A program made the translations under genes and the position numbers. Below, one piece after another: positions 1 to 6,175 of a stretch of 6,175 nt of DNA; positions within the stretch are counted from its first letter, which is position 1, and each line of letters opens with the position of its first letter. The notes under the pieces were generated by a model that saw only the letters and a program-made list of their open reading frames with translations, was not told the DNA's origin and ran no database searches. Source of the DNA: a virus (lineage: Duplodnaviria > Heunggongvirae > Uroviricota > Caudoviricetes); IMG/VR virus record IMGVR_UViG_2713896774_000002; one strand, given 5' to 3'.

Positions 1-903
1 CAGACCGTCAATAAGAAACTGGAAGACCAGAGTGCGGCAATTCAGCAGATACAGAAGGTTCAGGTTGATACAAATAATAACCTGAACAGCATGTGGGCTG
101 TGAAGCTGCAGCAGATGCAGGACGGACGCCTTTATATCGCGGGTATTGGTGCCGGTATTGAGAACACCCCTGACGGCATGCAGAGTCAGGTGCTGCTGGC
201 GGCGGACAGGATTGCGATGGTTAATCCTGCGAATGGCAACACAAAACCGATGTTTGTTGGTCAGGGCGATCAGATATTCATGAACGACGTGTTCCTGAAA
301 CGCCTGACGGCCCCCACCATTACCAGCGGTGGAAATCCACCGGCATTTTCCCTGACACCGGACGGAAAGCTGACTGCTAAAAATGCGGATATCAGTGGCA
401 GTGTGAATGCGAACTCCGGGACGCTCAACAACGTCACGATTAATGAGAACTGTCAGATTAAGGGGAAACTGTCAGCCAATCAGATTGAAGGCGATATTGT
501 CAAAACAGTGGGTAAGGCTTTCCCGCGGGACTCCCGGGCACCGGAGCGGTGGCCATCAGGGACCATTACCGTCAGGATTTATGACGATCAGCCTTTTGAC
601 AGGCAAATTGTTATTCCAGCGGTGGCATTCTGCGGCGCTAAACATGAGCGGGAGAATAACGATATTTATTCGTCATGCCGCCTGATAGTGAAGAAAAATG
701 GTGCTGAAATTTATAACCGTACCGCGCTGGATAATACGCTGATTTACAGTGGTGTTATTGATATGCCAGCTGGTCACGGCCACATGACGCTGGAGTTTTC
801 GGTGTCAGCATGGCTGGTAAATGACTGGTATCCCACAGCAAGTATCAGCGATTTGCTGGTTGTGGTGATGAAGAAAGCCACCGCAGGCATCAGTATCAGC
901 TGA
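1..903 (+). CDS. J: Tail-tip host-specificity protein J, C-terminal portion (5' partial; reading frame is open from base 1, stop TGA at 901-903)
   Basis: Frame 1 is open from position 1 through 903, so the ORF-track start at 91 is an internal Met. The translation (…[103 protein letters not shown]…) matches my recollection of the C-terminal part of lambda gpJ. It sits directly upstream of lom and stf, as in lambda. Confidence 0.85.
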
Positions 904-970: not shown

Positions 971-1042
971 ATGCGTAAAGTTTGTGCAGCCATTTTGTCC
1001 GCAGCCATCTGTCTGGCCGTATCCGGTGCGCCTGCATGGGCG
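971..1042 (+). other. Sec signal peptide of Lom (24 aa, predicted cleavage after AWA)
   Basis: Positively charged N-terminus (MRK), hydrophobic core ([14 protein letters not shown]) and an A-W-A signal peptidase I site, all read directly from the translation. Confidence 0.6.
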
Positions 1043-1570
1043 TCTGAGCAGCAGGCCACACTGAGCGCAGGGTATCTTCATGCCCGTACGAACGCTCCCG
1101 GCAGCGATGATCTGAACGGGATTAACGTGAAATACCGTTATGAGTTTACGGACACGCTGGGGCTGATTACGTCATTCAGTTATGCCAACGCTGAAGATGA
1201 GCAAAAAACGCATTACAGCGATACCCGCTGGCATGAAGATTCCGTGCGTAACCGCTGGTTCAGCGTGATGGCGGGGCCGTCTGTGCGCGTGAATGAATGG
1301 TTCAGCGCGTATGCGATGGCGGGTATGGCTTACAGCCGTGTTTCGACTTTCTCCGGAGATTATATCCGCGTAACTGACAACAAGGGGAAAACGCACGATG
1401 TGCTGACCGGAAGTGATGACGGTCGCCACAGCAACACGTCTCTGGCGTGGGGAGCTGGCGTGCAGTTTAACCCGACCGAATCCGTGGCCGTTGACGTCGC
1501 TTATGAAGGCTCCGGCAGCGGTGACTGGCGTACCAACAGTTTCATCGTGGGTGTCGGTTATAAATTCTGA
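971..1570 (+). CDS. lom: Lom outer-membrane protein (Ail/Lom/OmpX/PagC family 8-stranded beta-barrel), 199 aa
   Basis: 199-aa ORF with an N-terminal signal peptide ([24 protein letters not shown]|SEQ, AxA cleavage motif) and a C-terminal aromatic residue (…VGVGYKF) typical of OM beta-barrels. Sequence and position between J and stf match lambda lom as I recall it. Alternating hydrophobic/aromatic beta-strand patterns run through the protein. Confidence 0.9.
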
Positions 1571-1634: not shown

Positions 1635-4600
1635 ATGGCAGTAAAGATTTCAGGTGTACTGAAAGACGGCACAGGAAAACCGGTACAGAACTGCACAATC
1701 CAGCTGAAAGCAAAACGTAACAGCACCACGGTGGTGGTGAACACGCTGGCCTCAGAAAATCCGGATGAAGCCGGGCGTTACAGTATGGACGTTGAGTACG
1801 GTCAGTACAGCGTTATTCTGTTGGTGGAAGGATTCCCGCCGTCACATGCCGGGACCATCACCGTGTATGAAGATTCCCGACCCGGTACGCTGAATGATTT
1901 TCTCGGTGCCATGACGGAGGATGATGCCCGTCCGGAGGCACTGCGCCGTTTTGAGCTGATGGTGGAAGAGGTGGCGCGTAACGCGTCCGCGGTGGCACAG
2001 AACACGGCAGCCGCGAAGAAGTCAGCCGGCGATGCCGGCACATCAGCCCGTGAGGCGGCAACCCATGCGACTGATGCTGCAGGCTCAGCACGTGCAGCCA
2101 GCACATCAGCCGGGCAGGCCGCGACGTCGGCTCAGTCAGCGTCTTCCAGCGCAGGAACGGCATCAACAAAGGCTACTGAAGCATCAAAAAGTGCTGCCGC
2201 TGCAGAGTCCTCAAAAAGCGCGGCAGCTACCAGTGCCGGTGCGGCGAAAACGTCAGAAACGAATGCGGCAGCGTCACAAAAATCTGCAGCCACTTCTGCA
2301 TCCGCAGCGACCACAAAGGCGTCAGAAGCTGCCACCTCAGCCCGGGATGCGGCGGCCTCAAAAGAGGCAGCGAAATCATCAGAAACGAACGCATCATCAA
2401 GCGCCAGTAGTGCCGCTTCCTCGGCAACGGCGGCAGGAAATTCCGCGAAGGCGGCAAAGACGTCCGAGACGAACGCCAGGTCTTCTGAAACGGCAGCGGG
2501 ACAGAGTGCCTCAGCTGCGGCAGGCTCAAAAACAGCGGCAGCATCATCTGCCAGTGCCGCGTCAACAAGTGCCGGGCAGGCCTCAGCCAGTGCCACCGCT
2601 GCCGGAAAGTCGGCAGAAAGTGCCGCCTCGTCTGCTTCAACAGCCACAACGAAGGCTGGCGAAGCCACTGAACAGGCCAGTGCAGCAGCGAGGTCTGCTT
2701 CCGCAGCGAAGACATCCGAGACGAACGCGAAAGCGTCGGAAACCAGCGCAGAATCCTCAAAAACGGCTGCCGCATCGTCCGCCAGTTCGGCGGCGTCATC
2801 GGCATCATCGGCGTCAGCTTCAAAAGATGAGGCGACCAGACAGGCGTCAGCAGCGAAGGGCAGCGCCACGACAGCATCCACGAAGGCGACAGAGGCAGCT
2901 GGCAGTGCGACGGCGGCAGCACAGAGCAAAAGTACGGCGGAATCCGCGGCAACGCGCGCCGAGACAGCAGCTAAACGGGCAGAGGATATTGCATCCGCCG
3001 TGGCGCTTGAGGATGCAAGTACGACGAAAAAGGGGATAGTACAGCTCAGCAGTGCGACCAACAGTACGTCTGAAACGCTGGCGGCAACGCCAAAGGCAGT
3101 AAAATCAGCCTATGACAATGCAGAGAAACGTCTGCAGAAAGACCAGAACGGCGCTGATATACCCGATAAGGGACGCTTCCTGAACAACATTAACGCGGTC
3201 AGTAAAACAGACTTTGCTGATAAGCGTGGTATGCGTTATGTGCGGGTTAACGCTCCTGCAGGTGCAACATCTGGAAAATATTACCCTGTTGTTGTTATGC
3301 GTTCTGCTGGCTCAGTAAGCGAACTGGCATCAAGGGTCATTATCACCACGGCACCGCGAACCGCAGGCGATCCGATGAATAACTGCGAGTTTAACGGATT
3401 TGTTATGCCTGGTGGCTGGACTGACAGGGGGCGTTATGCTTATGGAATGTTCTGGCAATATCAAAACAATGAACGAGCCATCCACTCAATAATGATGAGT
3501 AATAAGGGCGATGATTTGCGCTCTGTGTTCTATGTTGATGGCGCTGCTTTCCCTGTTTTTGCGTTTATCGAAGATGGCCTGTCAATATCCGCACCTGGTG
3601 CTGATCTCGTTGTTAATGATACGACCTATAAGTTTGGGGCAACAAATCCAGCGACTGAATGTATCGCGGCGGACGTTATCCTTGATTTTAAGAGTGGGCG
3701 TGGTTTTTATGAGTCTCATTCGTTAATCGTTAACGATAACTTGTCGTGCAAAAAACTTTTTGCCACAGACGAAATTGTAGCGCGTGGTGGTAATCAGATT
3801 CGAATGATAGGTGGGGAGTATGGTGCATTATGGCGTAATGATGGCGCTAAAACTTACCTGCTGCTTACCAATCAAGGTGATGTTTATGGTGGCTGGAATA
3901 CATTAAGACCGTTTGCTATTGATAACGCAACCGGCGAACTGGTTATTGGAACCAAACTGTCCGCAAGTCTGAACGGTAATGCATTAACAGCAACAAAGCT
4001 GCAAACGCCAAGACTGGTTTCTGGTGTTGAGTTTGATGGTTCCAAAGATATTACTTTAACCGCCGCGCATGTGGCTGCTTTTGCCAGAAGGGCAACGGAT
4101 ACATATGCCGATGCGGATGGTGGCGTTCCCTGGAATGCCGAATCAGGCGCTTACAATGTCACCCGCTCTGGCAACAGCTATATTCTGGTTAACTTCTATA
4201 CCGGAGTCGGAAGTTGCCGGACATTGCAGATGAAGGCGCATTACAGAAATGGAGGTCTGTTCTACCGTTCCTCAAGAGATGGCTATGGTTTTGAGGAAGA
4301 CTGGGCAGAAGTTTATACCTCGAAAAATCTTCCACCAGAAAGCTACCCAGTCGGTGCACCAATCCCGTGGCCATCAGATACCGTTCCGTCTGGTTATGCC
4401 CTGATGCAGGGGCAGACTTTTGACAAATCTGCTTACCCGAAACTTGCAGCCGCTTATCCGTCAGGCGTGATCCCTGATATGCGTGGCTGGACGATTAAGG
4501 GCAAGCCCGCCAGTGATCGAGCCGTATTGTCTCAGGAACAGGACGGCATTAAATCACACACCCACAGCGCCAGCGTATCCAGTACGGATTTGGGGACGAA

Positions 4601-4985
4601 AACCACATCGTCGTTTGATTACGGCACTAAATCCACGAATAACACTGGTGCGCATACCCATAGTGTTAGCGGTACGGCTGCTTCAGCCGGTGCACATACC
4701 CATTCGATGACATTTGTTTCAGGTGGTTCCAGTGGTGCTCCGGGAAGTGGATCACCTGATTATTCTAAATACAGTGTTAACACTTCTTCTGCAGGCGCTC
4801 ATACGCACTCTGTATCGGGTACTGCTGCAAGCGCAGGTGCACACGCACATACTGTCGGTATTGGTGCTCATACGCACTCCGTTGCGATTGGTTCACATGG
4901 ACATACCATCACCGTTAACGCTGCTGGTAACGCGGAAAACACCGTCAAAAACATCGCATTTAACTATATTGTGAGGCTTGCATAA
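1635..4985 (+). CDS. stf: Side tail fibre protein Stf (about 1116 aa from ATG 1635; ORF track begins at in-frame GTG 1629)
   Basis: The N-terminus [26 protein letters not shown]… matches my recollection of the lambda/Rac Stf N-terminus. A long Ala/Ser/Thr-rich shaft follows, then a conserved phage tail-fibre repeat ([36 protein letters not shown]), then a C-terminal region with His-x-His repeats. The gene is followed by an overlapping tfa, the canonical stf-tfa pair. The ATG at 1635 is preferred over GTG 1629 because of the conserved MAVK N-terminus and a GGGG/GGTG SD-like tract at 1626-1632. Confidence 0.9.
2244..2728 (+). repeat. Four dispersed copies of a 24-bp direct repeat encoding AK(T/S)SETNA within the Ala/Ser-rich shaft of stf (copies at 2244-2267, 2370-2393, 2454-2477, 2705-2728)
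   Basis: Near-identical DNA units read directly: GCGAAAACGTCAGAAACGAATGCG, GCGAAATCATCAGAAACGAACGCA, GCAAAGACGTCCGAGACGAACGCC and GCGAAGACATCCGAGACGAACGCG, each encoding A-K-T/S-S-E-T-N-A. They are embedded in a low-complexity A/S/T-rich segment spanning roughly 1975-3000. Confidence 0.7.
3027..3131 (+). other. Conserved phage tail-fibre repeat / collar-like motif within Stf
   Basis: The peptide [36 protein letters not shown] resembles the short repeat motif recurrent in many phage tail fibres (recalled, not searched). Confidence 0.5.
4557..4904 (+). other. Cluster of seven His-x-His motifs in the Stf C-terminal tip (putative metal-binding needle-like domain)
   Basis: Translation shows SHTHS, GAHTHS, GAHTHS, GAHTHS, GAHAHT, GAHTHS and SHGHT between nt 4557 and 4904, mostly in the unit (S/T)AGAHTHS and interspersed with Gly/Ser-rich linkers. 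Confidence 0.6.
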
Positions 4986-5560
4986 TGGCATTCAGAATGA
5001 GTGAACAACCACGGACCATAAAAATTTATAATCTGCTGGCCGGAACTAATGAATTTATTGGTGAAGGTGACGCATATATTCCGCCTCATACAGGTCTGCC
5101 AGCAAACAGTACCGATATTGCACCGCCAGATATTCCGGCTGGCTTTGTGGCTGTTTTCAACAGTGATGAGGCATCGTGGCATCTCGTTGAAGATCATCGG
5201 GGAAAAACCGTCTATGACGTGGCTTCCGGCGACGCGTTATTTATTTCTGAACTTGGCTCGTTACCGGAAAATGTCACCTGGTTATCGCCGGAAGGGGAAT
5301 ATCAGAAGTGGAACGGCACAGCCTGGGTGAAGGATACGGAAGCAGAAAAACTGTTCCGGATCCGGGAGGCGGAAGAAACAAAAAACAACCTGATGCAGGT
5401 AGCCAGTGAGCATATTGCGCCGCTTCAGGATGCTGCAGATCTGGAAATCGCAACGGAGGAAGAAATCTCGTTGCTGGAAGCATGGAAAAAGTATCGGGTA
5501 TTGCTGAACCGTGTTGATACGTCAACTGCACAGGATATTGAATGGCCAGCACTGCCGTAG
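4985..5560 (+). CDS. tfa: Tail fibre assembly protein Tfa (191 aa)
   Basis: ATG 4985 overlaps the stf stop (TAATG) and is preceded by TGAGG (4972-4976). The C-terminal region (…[29 protein letters not shown]) matches the conserved C-terminus of lambda-type Tfa chaperones as I recall it. Its position immediately after stf fits. Confidence 0.9.
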
Positions 5561-5657
5561 GGTAAAACATATAAATTCTATAATTAGATGTATCTTTCCA
5601 TTTACGGCAAGGAAGGGGGCTTGGAAGACGTAAAGCATCTCACACCGAGATTATTTT

Positions 5658-6175
5658 TTATATGTCAGGTGTCTGAAGTTTTGCTTTGGCTCTTAAAATG
5701 GTTTGCCGCGAGGTTTTGAATTCCCGGGCAATGGCACTTATACTTACACCTGACTTAATTCGTTCGAATACCGCCTGTTTCTGTTCTTCATTTAACACAG
5801 GTGGTCGACCAAAACGTTTCCCTGCGCCGCGGGCTCTTACTATCCCGGAATGAGTGCGTTCAAGTAAAAGGTCTCGTTCAAATTCAGCGACTGCTGAAAT
5901 TACTTGCATCATCATTTTTCCTGTTGGACTGGTCAGGTCAATGCCCCCCAATGCTAAGCAATGCACTCTGATACCTGTTTCGGTCAGTTGTTCCACTGTT
6001 TTCCTGATATCCATTGCATTACAACCAAGGCGATCCAGTTTTGTCACAATCAATTGATCACCACATTTCAGGCGAGCAAGCAACCGGTTAAAACCAGGAC
6101 GCTCACTGGTTGCTGGGTAATGACTCCAACTTATTGATAGTGTTTTATGTTCAGATAATGCCCGATGACTTTGTC
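5658..6175 (-). CDS. pin: Serine recombinase, DNA-invertase (Pin/Hin/Gin-like), C-terminal about 170 aa; N-terminus lies beyond the window end
   Basis: The minus-strand frame is open from 6175 down to the stop at 5658-5660; the ORF-track 'M' at 6083 is a TTG and not the real start. The translation contains resolvase/invertase hallmarks: …[33 protein letters not shown]…[23 protein letters not shown]…GRPP… plus a C-terminal helix-turn-helix ([21 protein letters not shown]). Convergent with tfa, as in Rac-type prophages (stf-tfa-pin). Confidence 0.85.

Follow-up and report, generated by a model that had tools for sequence, protein, structure and literature searches.

Why does a gene for a serine recombinase lie beside tail-fibre genes when no invertible segment can be seen around it? 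The question is raised by a 6,175-nucleotide stretch of viral DNA (IMG/VR record IMGVR_UViG_2713896774_000002), referred to here in its entirety as the window, in which the initial annotation placed a Din-family invertase next to the genes stf and tfa. In the systems served by Din invertases, the invertible segment is flanked by two inverted 26-bp sites with a 12-2-12 structure and carries, in the opposite direction, an alternative tail-fibre C-terminus and assembly gene; the recombinase gene contains a Fis-dependent enhancer towards its 5′ end. The features of the window, with their coordinates and strands, are these:

1 to 903, plus strand: terminal (3′) portion of the tail-tip gene J, whose open reading frame runs in across the left edge (Pfam Phage_Tail_Tip and Ig_GpJ_C)
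971 to 1570, plus strand: lom, intact, encoding an outer-membrane β-barrel of the Ail/Lom type (Pfam Ail_Lom, full length, E 2.7e-126)
1635 to 4985, plus strand: stf, single copy, encoding a side tail-fibre protein of 1116 amino acids (Pfam phage_tail_N, Gp34_trimer, Collar and Phage_fiber)
4985 to 5560, plus strand: tfa, single copy, encoding a tail-fibre assembly protein of 191 amino acids (Pfam Caudo_TAP, E 3e-43)
5561 to 5614, no strand assigned: spacer DNA leading from the tfa stop to the remnant of the transposon end; beyond about 5567 it is carried along with the pin block
5615 to 5649, plus strand: decayed 38-bp terminal inverted repeat of the Tn3/Tn21 family, colinear with an intact plasmid repeat
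5658 to 6115, minus strand: the last 458 nt of a tnpR-like serine recombinase gene of the pinQ/pinR type, called pin below (Pfam Resolvase and HTH_7; pinQ homology)
6116 to 6175, minus strand: IS1 end interrupting pin (100% match to an annotated IS1A end)

The window very probably represents the right arm of a lambdoid prophage of the Qin/Rac type, with J, lom, stf and tfa, followed by the remnant of a transposon end. The J portion is 99% identical with gpJ of Escherichia coli ATCC 8739, and the central part of stf is mosaic relative to that strain between positions 3117 and 4346, boundaries that were placed by blastn. The stf frame runs from the ATG at 1635 to a stop codon ending at 4985, where the ATG of tfa begins, giving a one-base overlap (TAATG); the tfa stop codon ends at 5560. 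The Pfam domains of the two products and the order of their genes after J and lom fit a lambdoid side tail fibre with its assembly protein. The stop codon of the recombinase gene occupies 5658–5660 on the minus strand, and the spacer between the tfa and recombinase stops (5561–5657) measures exactly the 97 bp first given for it. A scan of this spacer for promoters and terminators gave nothing notable and no terminator-like site. The stf–tfa–pin layout is already known, being a common and annotated feature of Qin/Rac-type prophages. The order J-lom-stf-tfaQ-pinQ-ydfK-ynfT-ydfJ′ is found in ATCC 8739 and other strains, at least 80% of positions 4400–6175 of the window is present in 1,969 of 5,426 complete E. 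coli genomes, and stf, tfa and pin are similarly arranged in the functional phages Turner, Kati and 2H10.

The initial annotation described stf and tfa as single-copy and contiguous, and the open reading frame coordinates, the Pfam matches and tblastn searches of both strands of the window bear this out. With Tfa and the C-terminal 616 residues of Stf as queries, tblastn detected no second copy of either protein on either strand, the best off-diagonal match having an E value of about 0.7–0.9, and confirmed that inverted tfa′ or stf′ fragments are missing from the window. The further claim that the window has no repeat resembling a 26-bp crossover site was confirmed by searches with site consensus, half-site and pix sequences. 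The Din consensus TTNTCNNAAACCNNGGTTTNNGANAA has no match in the window at up to three mismatches, and the 12-bp Din half-site has none at up to one mismatch, where chance alone would give 1.2; the e14 pix repeat as published, the 16-mer CCTTCTCCCAAACCAA, is likewise unmatched in the window at up to three mismatches. The inverted repeats present in the window are all short, with arm complementarities of 72–100%, those of the intact ATCC 8739 locus are short too, and in neither place do any of them bracket stf–tfa or the variable part of stf together with tfa. No site-like sequence in the window lies over the recombinase stop codon, which is the position of cixL in P1.

Two further candidates were considered and rejected. 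A Din-like site was sought at the spot in stf equivalent to that of P1 cix (about 3870–3960, beginning TTATTGGAACCAAACTG), and no match within three mismatches was found there. On the minus strand, the spacer can be read as a peptide ending in SKPPSLP before a stop, which resembles the EWPALP terminus of Tfa and made the stretch a candidate tfa′ remnant; tblastn gave no Tfa match at this place at E values of up to 100, and the stretch is accounted for by the transposon terminal repeat described below.

Related loci were sampled as 80 viral contigs with PinQ proteins 99–100% identical. In every one of them the tfa homologues lie on the strand opposite pin, in one orientation, and an inverted stf or tfa fragment is absent. 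Paired sites or the presence of both orientations would have spoken for inversion of stf–tfa; the window has no such sites, and all 80 loci show the same orientation.

The premise that the gene is a Din-family invertase fails when the protein sequences are compared, PinQ being 35–39% identical to PinE and Cin as against 61–85% to resolvase-type proteins of transposons and plasmids. The individual values are 39/38% for PinE, 36/35% for Cin and 36% for Gin of phage D108. PinE and Cin are 83% identical to one another, and this high mutual identity of the Din invertases is not shared by PinQ. Its recognition helix also differs from theirs, and its helix-turn-helix is near-invariant with that of the transposon and plasmid relatives. 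The closest relatives are those on IncI, IncK and IncF plasmids, at 85% identity (e.g. WP_000086536.1; 250 records fall at 80–90%), those of Shewanella and Erwinia at 77–78%, those of Mycoavidus at about 69–70% and that of an alphaproteobacterium at 61%. Tfa, Stf, J and Lom are absent from the neighbourhood of every relative outside Escherichia. The Shewanella (L016, 77%) and Mycoavidus (L017) genes reside inside elements that have 48-bp terminal repeats and a DDE_Tnp_Tn3 transposase (PF01526; E 1e-148 and 8e-154, respectively). Comparison with solved structures gave a slightly better score to Gin (105 bits) than to γδ resolvase (83 bits), an observation that counts against a resolvase lineage.

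Upstream of the gene, the relatives possess a three-dyad res array with the half-site TGTCCGAAA/TTTCGTACA. In the intact E. coli loci, the stretch of roughly 85 bp immediately before pinQ is homologous to the res regions of these relatives (scores 45 and 54; the null maxima were 28 and 30), with homology at subsites II and III and a degraded subsite I. Because of IS1, this region falls outside the window, where no res dyad of the PinQ clade was found and half-sites occur at chance level (3 against 2.5 expected). Through this degraded array, the earlier suggestion that the sites of the recombinase lie beyond the window is weakly true, though in a different sense from the one intended. On that suggestion, cognate sites would bound a larger invertible or excisable segment containing stf–tfa or the pin–ydfK block, and phage Turner, in which a 3′ piece of tfa recurs beyond pin, speaks in its favour. 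However, the array found upstream of intact pinQ, past the position of IS1, contains no recognisable intact crossover subsite I and has no partner within 6–10 kb, and the Turner duplicate, which is part of a gene and not a site, lies in direct rather than inverted orientation. Given also the constant orientation in the 80 loci and a published survey in which no inversions were found in Qin or Rac (PMC12529663), we consider such an outlying pair of sites very improbable.

The spacer contains the other part of the evidence. The repeat at 5615–5649 is placed with its outer GGGG end towards tfa and its inner end towards pin, and it has suffered a 3-bp deletion. It is colinear with an intact 38-bp repeat situated 13 nt past the stop codon of the 85%-identical plasmid gene (L113). 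The two copies are identical at 27 of 35 bases, and their local alignment score of 31 was reached in none of 2000 shuffles, which gave 25 at most. Between prophage and plasmid, homology extends over 697 nt at 83% identity and ends at the outer end of the repeat. In a second plasmid (L114), the same repeat is interrupted by IS4321. This insertion sequence targets terminal repeats of the kind, and we count its presence as corroboration of the identity of the repeat. The prophage repeat is diverged, and a comparison with nothing but the distant Shewanella repeat gives a score that loci of 15–20 kb also reach by chance; what carries the case is the colinear alignment with the repeat on the plasmid.

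Only one end of a transposon survives near pinQ, since neither a tnpA remnant (tblastn) nor a second terminal repeat was found in the window or in the E. coli and phage loci (L001, L003, L004 and L009). A search for an empty site found none: the phages that have no pin share homology only as far as 5547–5566 and not up to the repeat, which leaves direct insertion of a transposon at this point hypothetical. Phage HannyBb shares positions 5450–6115 even though its fibre module differs.

From these relationships we infer, with a probability of roughly 0.85, that the pinQ/pinR-type gene beside tfa is the leftover of a Tn3-family transposon end consisting of a terminal repeat and a tnpR-like gene. 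One such end, with its 38-bp repeat, would have become joined to the phage arm after tfa. The remnant is decayed, its repeat having diverged and no tnpA or second repeat having been found, and IS1 has further truncated the recombinase gene at 6115/6116. The recombinase would adjoin tfa owing to the way in which an accessory block joined the phage arm, and not through past service to an adjacent invertible tail-fibre segment. With a tnpR-like origin, a tfa′ or stf′ copy and crossover sites are not to be expected, and the missing segment becomes ordinary for a gene that is probably a transposon resolvase by descent and is here also cut by IS1. The initial annotation had offered "orphan or remnant" as one possibility; "remnant" is apt, but what appears to be left over is an end of a Tn3-family transposon and not a decayed inversion system of the Mu, P1 or e14 type.

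A decayed Din-type system is nevertheless the obvious competitor. It would be P1-like, with its alternative arm and both crossover sites lost, and its ancestor can be drawn as cin-like pin → [stf′v tfa′][tfa stf v] ← stf c. The polarity is indeed that of P1, in which cin and S–U converge and cixL and the stop codon of cin overlap; Stf and Tfa have homologues in S and U of P1 and in StfE and TfaE of e14; and residues 775–813 of Stf match sequence just inside the repeats of the P1 C segment. Against this, the protein is far from the Din invertases (35–39%, where these reach 83% among themselves) and near to the transposon and plasmid resolvase-type proteins (61–85%), and the spacer holds the remnant of a transposon terminal repeat instead of a cix-like site. 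The window has no Din site even with three mismatches allowed, no tfa′ or stf′ remnant, and nothing site-like at the P1-equivalent position in stf (about 3870–3960). Moreover, a single orientation with no inverted copy was found at 80 of 80 related loci, and in HannyBb the same pin block stands beside an unrelated fibre module. Descent from such a system thus seems to us highly unlikely.

The presumed transposon end has been damaged further in the window. What remains of pin is 2 nt of codon 45, codons 46–196 and the stop; codons 1–44, including that for the catalytic Ser11, are missing, the 5′ 133 nt of the gene being absent from the window, and the Pfam Resolvase match covers only positions 46–144 of the 145 in the profile. 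The gene is 99% identical to intact pinQ as far as 6115, where homology stops, and the protein is 99% identical over the 151 codons retained. Over 61 nt, the adjoining IS1 sequence is a 100% match to an IS1A end that is annotated in strain EA2 (L002, 7456–7516). The IS1 terminal repeat adjoins the transposase frame on its 3′ side, and that frame would be on the minus strand, as is the coding sequence in EA2; one end only of the element is visible in the window. It is highly probable, judging from this junction, that the gene was inactivated at 6115/6116 by insertion of IS1 or by an IS1-mediated rearrangement, and the copy is presumably non-functional: with codons 1–44 and the catalytic serine removed by the IS1 event, it should be able to act neither in cis nor in trans. 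Neither the viral contigs of IMG/VR nor the 5,426 complete E. coli genomes contain this exact pin::IS1 junction, the top matches having only pinQ and an IS1 near each other, and neither of the two pin loci of Shigella flexneri SFBU0723 has an IS1 in pin. The incompleteness of the recombinase frame, due to IS1, and the position of the gene outside the Din family by sequence had both been overlooked in the initial annotation.

The catalytic residues of serine recombinases are Ser10, Arg8, Arg68 and Arg71 in Tn3 numbering. The window copy lacks the serine and the region of Arg8, and its KLDRLGC motif puts a cysteine at the position equivalent to Arg71. This replacement was found in 95 of the 95 prophage copies sampled, and Tn3 resolvase mutated at R71 loses its ability to recombine (PMC2794168).

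That the recombinase might act elsewhere, as the initial annotation proposed, has a basis in the intact protein, but the copy in the window lacks the catalytic serine. A paper of 2025 reports that intact PinQ/PinR of K-12 inverts the P segment of e14 in trans, in vivo (PMC12529663). Over-production of PinQ raised inversion of the P segment from about 30% to 88%, deletion of stfP, stfE or e14 abolished the phenotype, and a BLAST survey revealed inversions only in e14; the authors state that PinQ inverts the DNA of another prophage and not the DNA adjacent to it (PMC12529663). In the same work the P segment was locked in a pinE mutant, and an in vitro assay with purified PinQ is not reported (PMC12529663). 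Inversion in vivo by intact PinQ is unexpected for an enzyme of resolvase lineage and counts against the explanation that we favour.

Taken at face value, the over-production, the deletions and the e14-only inversions would make the recombinase a functional trans-acting invertase of the e14 P segment, producing a chimeric StfE2 that blocks phage T2. For the copy in the window, deprived by IS1 of codons 1–44 and of Ser11 with them, we judge this most improbable. As regards the intact protein, some caution is in order: the P segment is locked in the pinE mutant and the assay with purified PinQ goes unreported; all prophage copies have cysteine at a position where mutation deprives Tn3 resolvase of recombination (PMC2794168); and the helix-turn-helix of PinQ is that of the res-binding clade.

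A more tentative proposal, which we regard as possible but doubtful, is that the PinQ/PinR lineage is a domesticated, catalytically compromised TnpR and perhaps not itself the flipper of the e14 P segment. The points behind it are the cysteine at Arg71, the degraded crossover subsite of res, the lack of tnpA and the decayed repeat. If it were true, PinQ-dependent inversion and T2 resistance would be indirect, for instance through DNA binding or through modulation of PinE, and an indirect action would fit the locked P segment of the pinE mutant. The proposal concerns intact copies elsewhere; the copy in the window is dead regardless.

For the window itself these results have little importance, the gene here being a pseudogene, and it has already been noted in print that no invertible segment adjoins the gene. 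The labels "Pin" and "DNA invertase" invite the wrong expectation for a gene that, on the transposon-end reading, descends from a Tn3-family module of res, tnpR and terminal repeat. Scans that flag an "invertase without invertible segment" by tail fibres should check the serine-recombinase clade first. The cysteine at the catalytic arginine position in all prophage copies bears on the testing of the reported trans-inversion of e14.

Among known systems, the Qin and Rac loci of K-12, with pinQ and pinR in an stf–tfa–pin–ydfK/ynaE block, have the gene order of the window, the same convergence of tfa and pin and the same 97-bp spacer; they differ from it in that the window gene is truncated by IS1 at codon 45 and the central region of stf is a different mosaic. 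With the Din systems (Mu Gin/G, P1 Cin/C, e14 Pin/P and Salmonella Hin) the window shares a small serine recombinase that adjoins tail-fibre genes, fibre products with homologues in S/U and StfE/TfaE and, as in P1, convergent polarity. Unlike them, the window has no 26-bp sites and no inverted alternative arm, and its recombinase has a different recognition helix and only 35–39% identity. From the TnpR modules of Tn3-family transposons and the res–tnpR–terminal-repeat remnants of plasmids, the prophage copies differ in having no tnpA and no second repeat, a degraded subsite I, cysteine in place of the Arg71 equivalent and a decayed terminal repeat. What the two have in common is 61–85% identity of the recombinase, homology at the promoter-proximal res subsites II and III, and a 38-bp repeat of the Tn21 type 3′ of the stop codon.

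The window is the right arm of a lambdoid prophage, 6175 bp in length, and matches by megablast Qin/Rac-type prophages annotated with J, lom, tail fibre, tfaQ, pinQ, ydfK, ynfT and truncated ydfJ. At least 80% of positions 4400–6175 is held in 1,969 of 5,426 complete Escherichia coli genomes, and the J–lom–stf–tfa–pin layout is already known. Open reading frames and Pfam matches define the following features:

to 903, plus strand: 3′ end of J
971–1570, plus strand: lom
1635–4985, plus strand: stf, side tail-fibre gene
4985–5560, plus strand: tfa, assembly gene
5658–5660, minus strand: stop codon of the serine-recombinase ORF

On either side of lom, GC-rich hairpins precede runs of T (915–950, cgggcgccagaaatggcgcctttttt; 1595–1625, cccgccggttcaggcgggctttttt); they look like intrinsic terminators that would make it a separate unit. 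The Ala/Ser-rich part of stf at 2000–3000 contains imperfect periodic repeats of 21, 42 and 63 bp, which yield long spurious ORFs in the remaining frames and on the opposite strand, such as 2032–3039 (plus) and 2132–3061 (minus). At the 3′ end of stf (4640–4900), repeated GAHTHS (His-x-His) motifs, similar to the metal-binding repeats of T4-type fibres, match the phage tail-fibre repeat of Pfam. The central part of stf, 3117–4346, is without homology to the intact ATCC 8739 locus, which is 99% identical elsewhere, and is matched only in parts by phage Turner (for example, 4020–4672 at 95%). Such sharply bounded mosaicism is typical of tail fibres.

The initial annotation had remarked that a recombinase gene abuts the tail-fibre genes with no invertible segment in view, and on this point it was accurate. 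stf and tfa are contiguous with a one-base overlap, and a 97-bp spacer (5561–5657) separates the tfa stop from that of the recombinase. In tblastn searches of both strands, Tfa and the C-terminal 616 residues of Stf match their own genes only; both genes are thus single-copy, with no inverted fragment. The 26-bp Din crossover consensus is unmatched in the window at up to three mismatches, as is the published e14 pix repeat, and the Din half-site, expected 1.2 times by chance, does not occur at up to one mismatch. The window and one intact locus contain only short inverted repeats, none of which encloses the variable stf region together with tfa. Among 80 viral contigs encoding PinQ at 99–100% identity, tfa homologs lie opposite in strand to pin in every case, with a single copy in 79 and two same-strand copies in one, and none of the 80 carries an inverted stf or tfa fragment. 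The invertible segment is truly absent from the window, yet this is no puzzle given the probable transposon-end identity of the gene set out below.

The assignment of the recombinase to the Din family, by contrast, could not be sustained. PinQ is 38–39% identical to PinE, 35–36% to Cin and 36% to Gin, whereas PinE and Cin are 83% identical to one another; its recognition helix is also unlike that of the Din invertases. When one genome per species was scanned, relatives of 57–78% identity emerged in Shewanella, Erwinia, Budvicia, Photorhabdus, Mycoavidus and alphaproteobacteria, none of them with Tfa, Stf, J or Lom as neighbours. In Shewanella and Mycoavidus the relative is carried by elements that encode a Tn3-type DDE transposase (E values of 1e-148 and 8e-154) and are bounded by 48-bp terminal inverted repeats. 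On plasmids, 250 records encode an 80–90% identical protein, its gene neighbouring ParM or RelE/ParE in IncI, IncK and IncF plasmids. The helix-turn-helix is almost invariant throughout this prophage, transposon and plasmid clade.

Some of these loci have features of their own. The Mycoavidus element (L017, 3850–9678) carries as passenger a 1942-residue ARM/WD40-repeat protein. In Erwinia oleae (L020, 1299–2633), two paralogs of the clade lie head to head in a 1.35-kb palindrome of 75% identity, separated by a res-like array. In Budvicia aquatica (L025, 9876–13267), 39-bp Tn21-type repeats surround a PinQ-like gene, an unknown 320-residue ORF and an IS110-family transposase, and the recombinase start directly adjoins a remnant of the tnpA C-terminus.

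The spacer itself points to a transposon end. In plasmid L113, a complete 38-bp Tn21-type terminal repeat, identical at 37 of 38 positions to the Shewanella repeat, lies 13 nt past the stop of an 85%-identical gene. Window positions 5615–5649 are colinear with it, with 27 of 35 bases identical, one 3-bp deletion and the outer GGGG end toward tfa (local score of 31 against a maximum of 25 in 2000 shuffles); against the distant repeat from Shewanella by itself, the alignment is no more than suggestive. Prophage and plasmid align by blastn as a single 697-nt block of 83% identity, extending from some 59 bp ahead of the ATG to the outer edge of the repeat. In a second plasmid, L114, the same repeat is broken after 17 nt by IS4321, which targets terminal repeats of Tn21-like transposons (PMC8269217). 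Near pinQ we found neither a tnpA remnant nor a second terminal repeat. We likewise found no empty site bounded by the repeat, since in phages that lack pin the homology extends no further than 5547–5566.

Upstream of the gene, transposon and plasmid relatives have a three-dyad res array (half-sites TGTCCGAAA and TTTCGTACA) whose subsite I is a 26-bp dyad. At intact E. coli loci, roughly the final 85 bp ahead of the pinQ ATG, comprising subsites II and III and the promoter, are homologous to these arrays (local scores of 45 and 54, the null maxima being 28 and 30), and of subsite I only half is recognisable. This region lies beyond IS1 and hence outside the window; within the window no res dyad occurs, and half-sites are no more frequent than chance predicts. 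From these comparisons, we conclude that pin is in all probability a decayed Tn3-family transposon end, consisting of terminal repeat and tnpR.

In phage HannyBb, the same block (window 5450–6115, including a 111-bp tfa 3′ remnant) adjoins an unrelated fibre module; the block therefore moves separately from the fibre genes. The remnant, at 7690–7799 of HannyBb (L003), is followed by the switch to the unrelated module, which places a mosaic junction inside the tfa 3′ end. Phage Turner (L004, 4954–5074) has a further tfa 3′ fragment, 89% identical to window 5404–5524, beyond the pin–ydfK block. This fragment has the same orientation as tfa, so that direct repeats of the tfa end enclose the block. 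The window copy is, moreover, incomplete. Homology to intact pinQ ends at 6115, and 6116–6175 matches the end of an annotated IS1 at 100% identity. Codons 46–196 are kept and codons 1–44 are gone, with the YCRISTLDQ motif holding the catalytic serine; only positions 46–144 of the 145-position Pfam Resolvase profile are matched. Broken by the IS1 terminal repeat after codon 45, the frame stays open through the IS1 end to the window edge. This exact junction is absent from the 5,426 complete E. coli genomes and from IMG/VR, so it may come from Shigella or from a strain not yet sampled. The transposon-end block is an accessory unit travelling beside the tail-fibre genes of Qin/Rac-type phages, here also truncated by IS1.

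All 95 prophage-type copies sampled, the window's included (5883–5903, minus strand), read KLDRLGC, against KLDRLGR in all 14 transposon, plasmid and Din relatives. The cysteine aligns with Arg71 of γδ and Tn3 resolvase; R71 mutants of the Tn3 enzyme no longer recombine, and their cleavage is slowed by a factor of at least 10^3 (PMC2794168). Our literature search found no description of PinQ/PinR as a transposon-resolvase remnant; automatic annotation already gives the label "pinR" to a plasmid gene beside Tn5403. The moderate interest that remains attaches to intact PinQ/PinR elsewhere, not to the window copy. In K-12, PinQ and PinR, described as 38% identical to PinE, are reported not to invert adjacent DNA and to invert in trans the 1797-bp P segment of e14, the product being a chimeric StfE2 that prevents T2 from adsorbing (Kirigo et al., NAR 2025; PMC12529663). 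That paper contains no in vitro assay of purified PinQ, and it states that in the pinE mutant the P segment is locked; given these points, the cysteine and the clade, PinQ may act either directly or indirectly. The BLAST survey in the same study (PMC12529663) placed inversions in e14 only.
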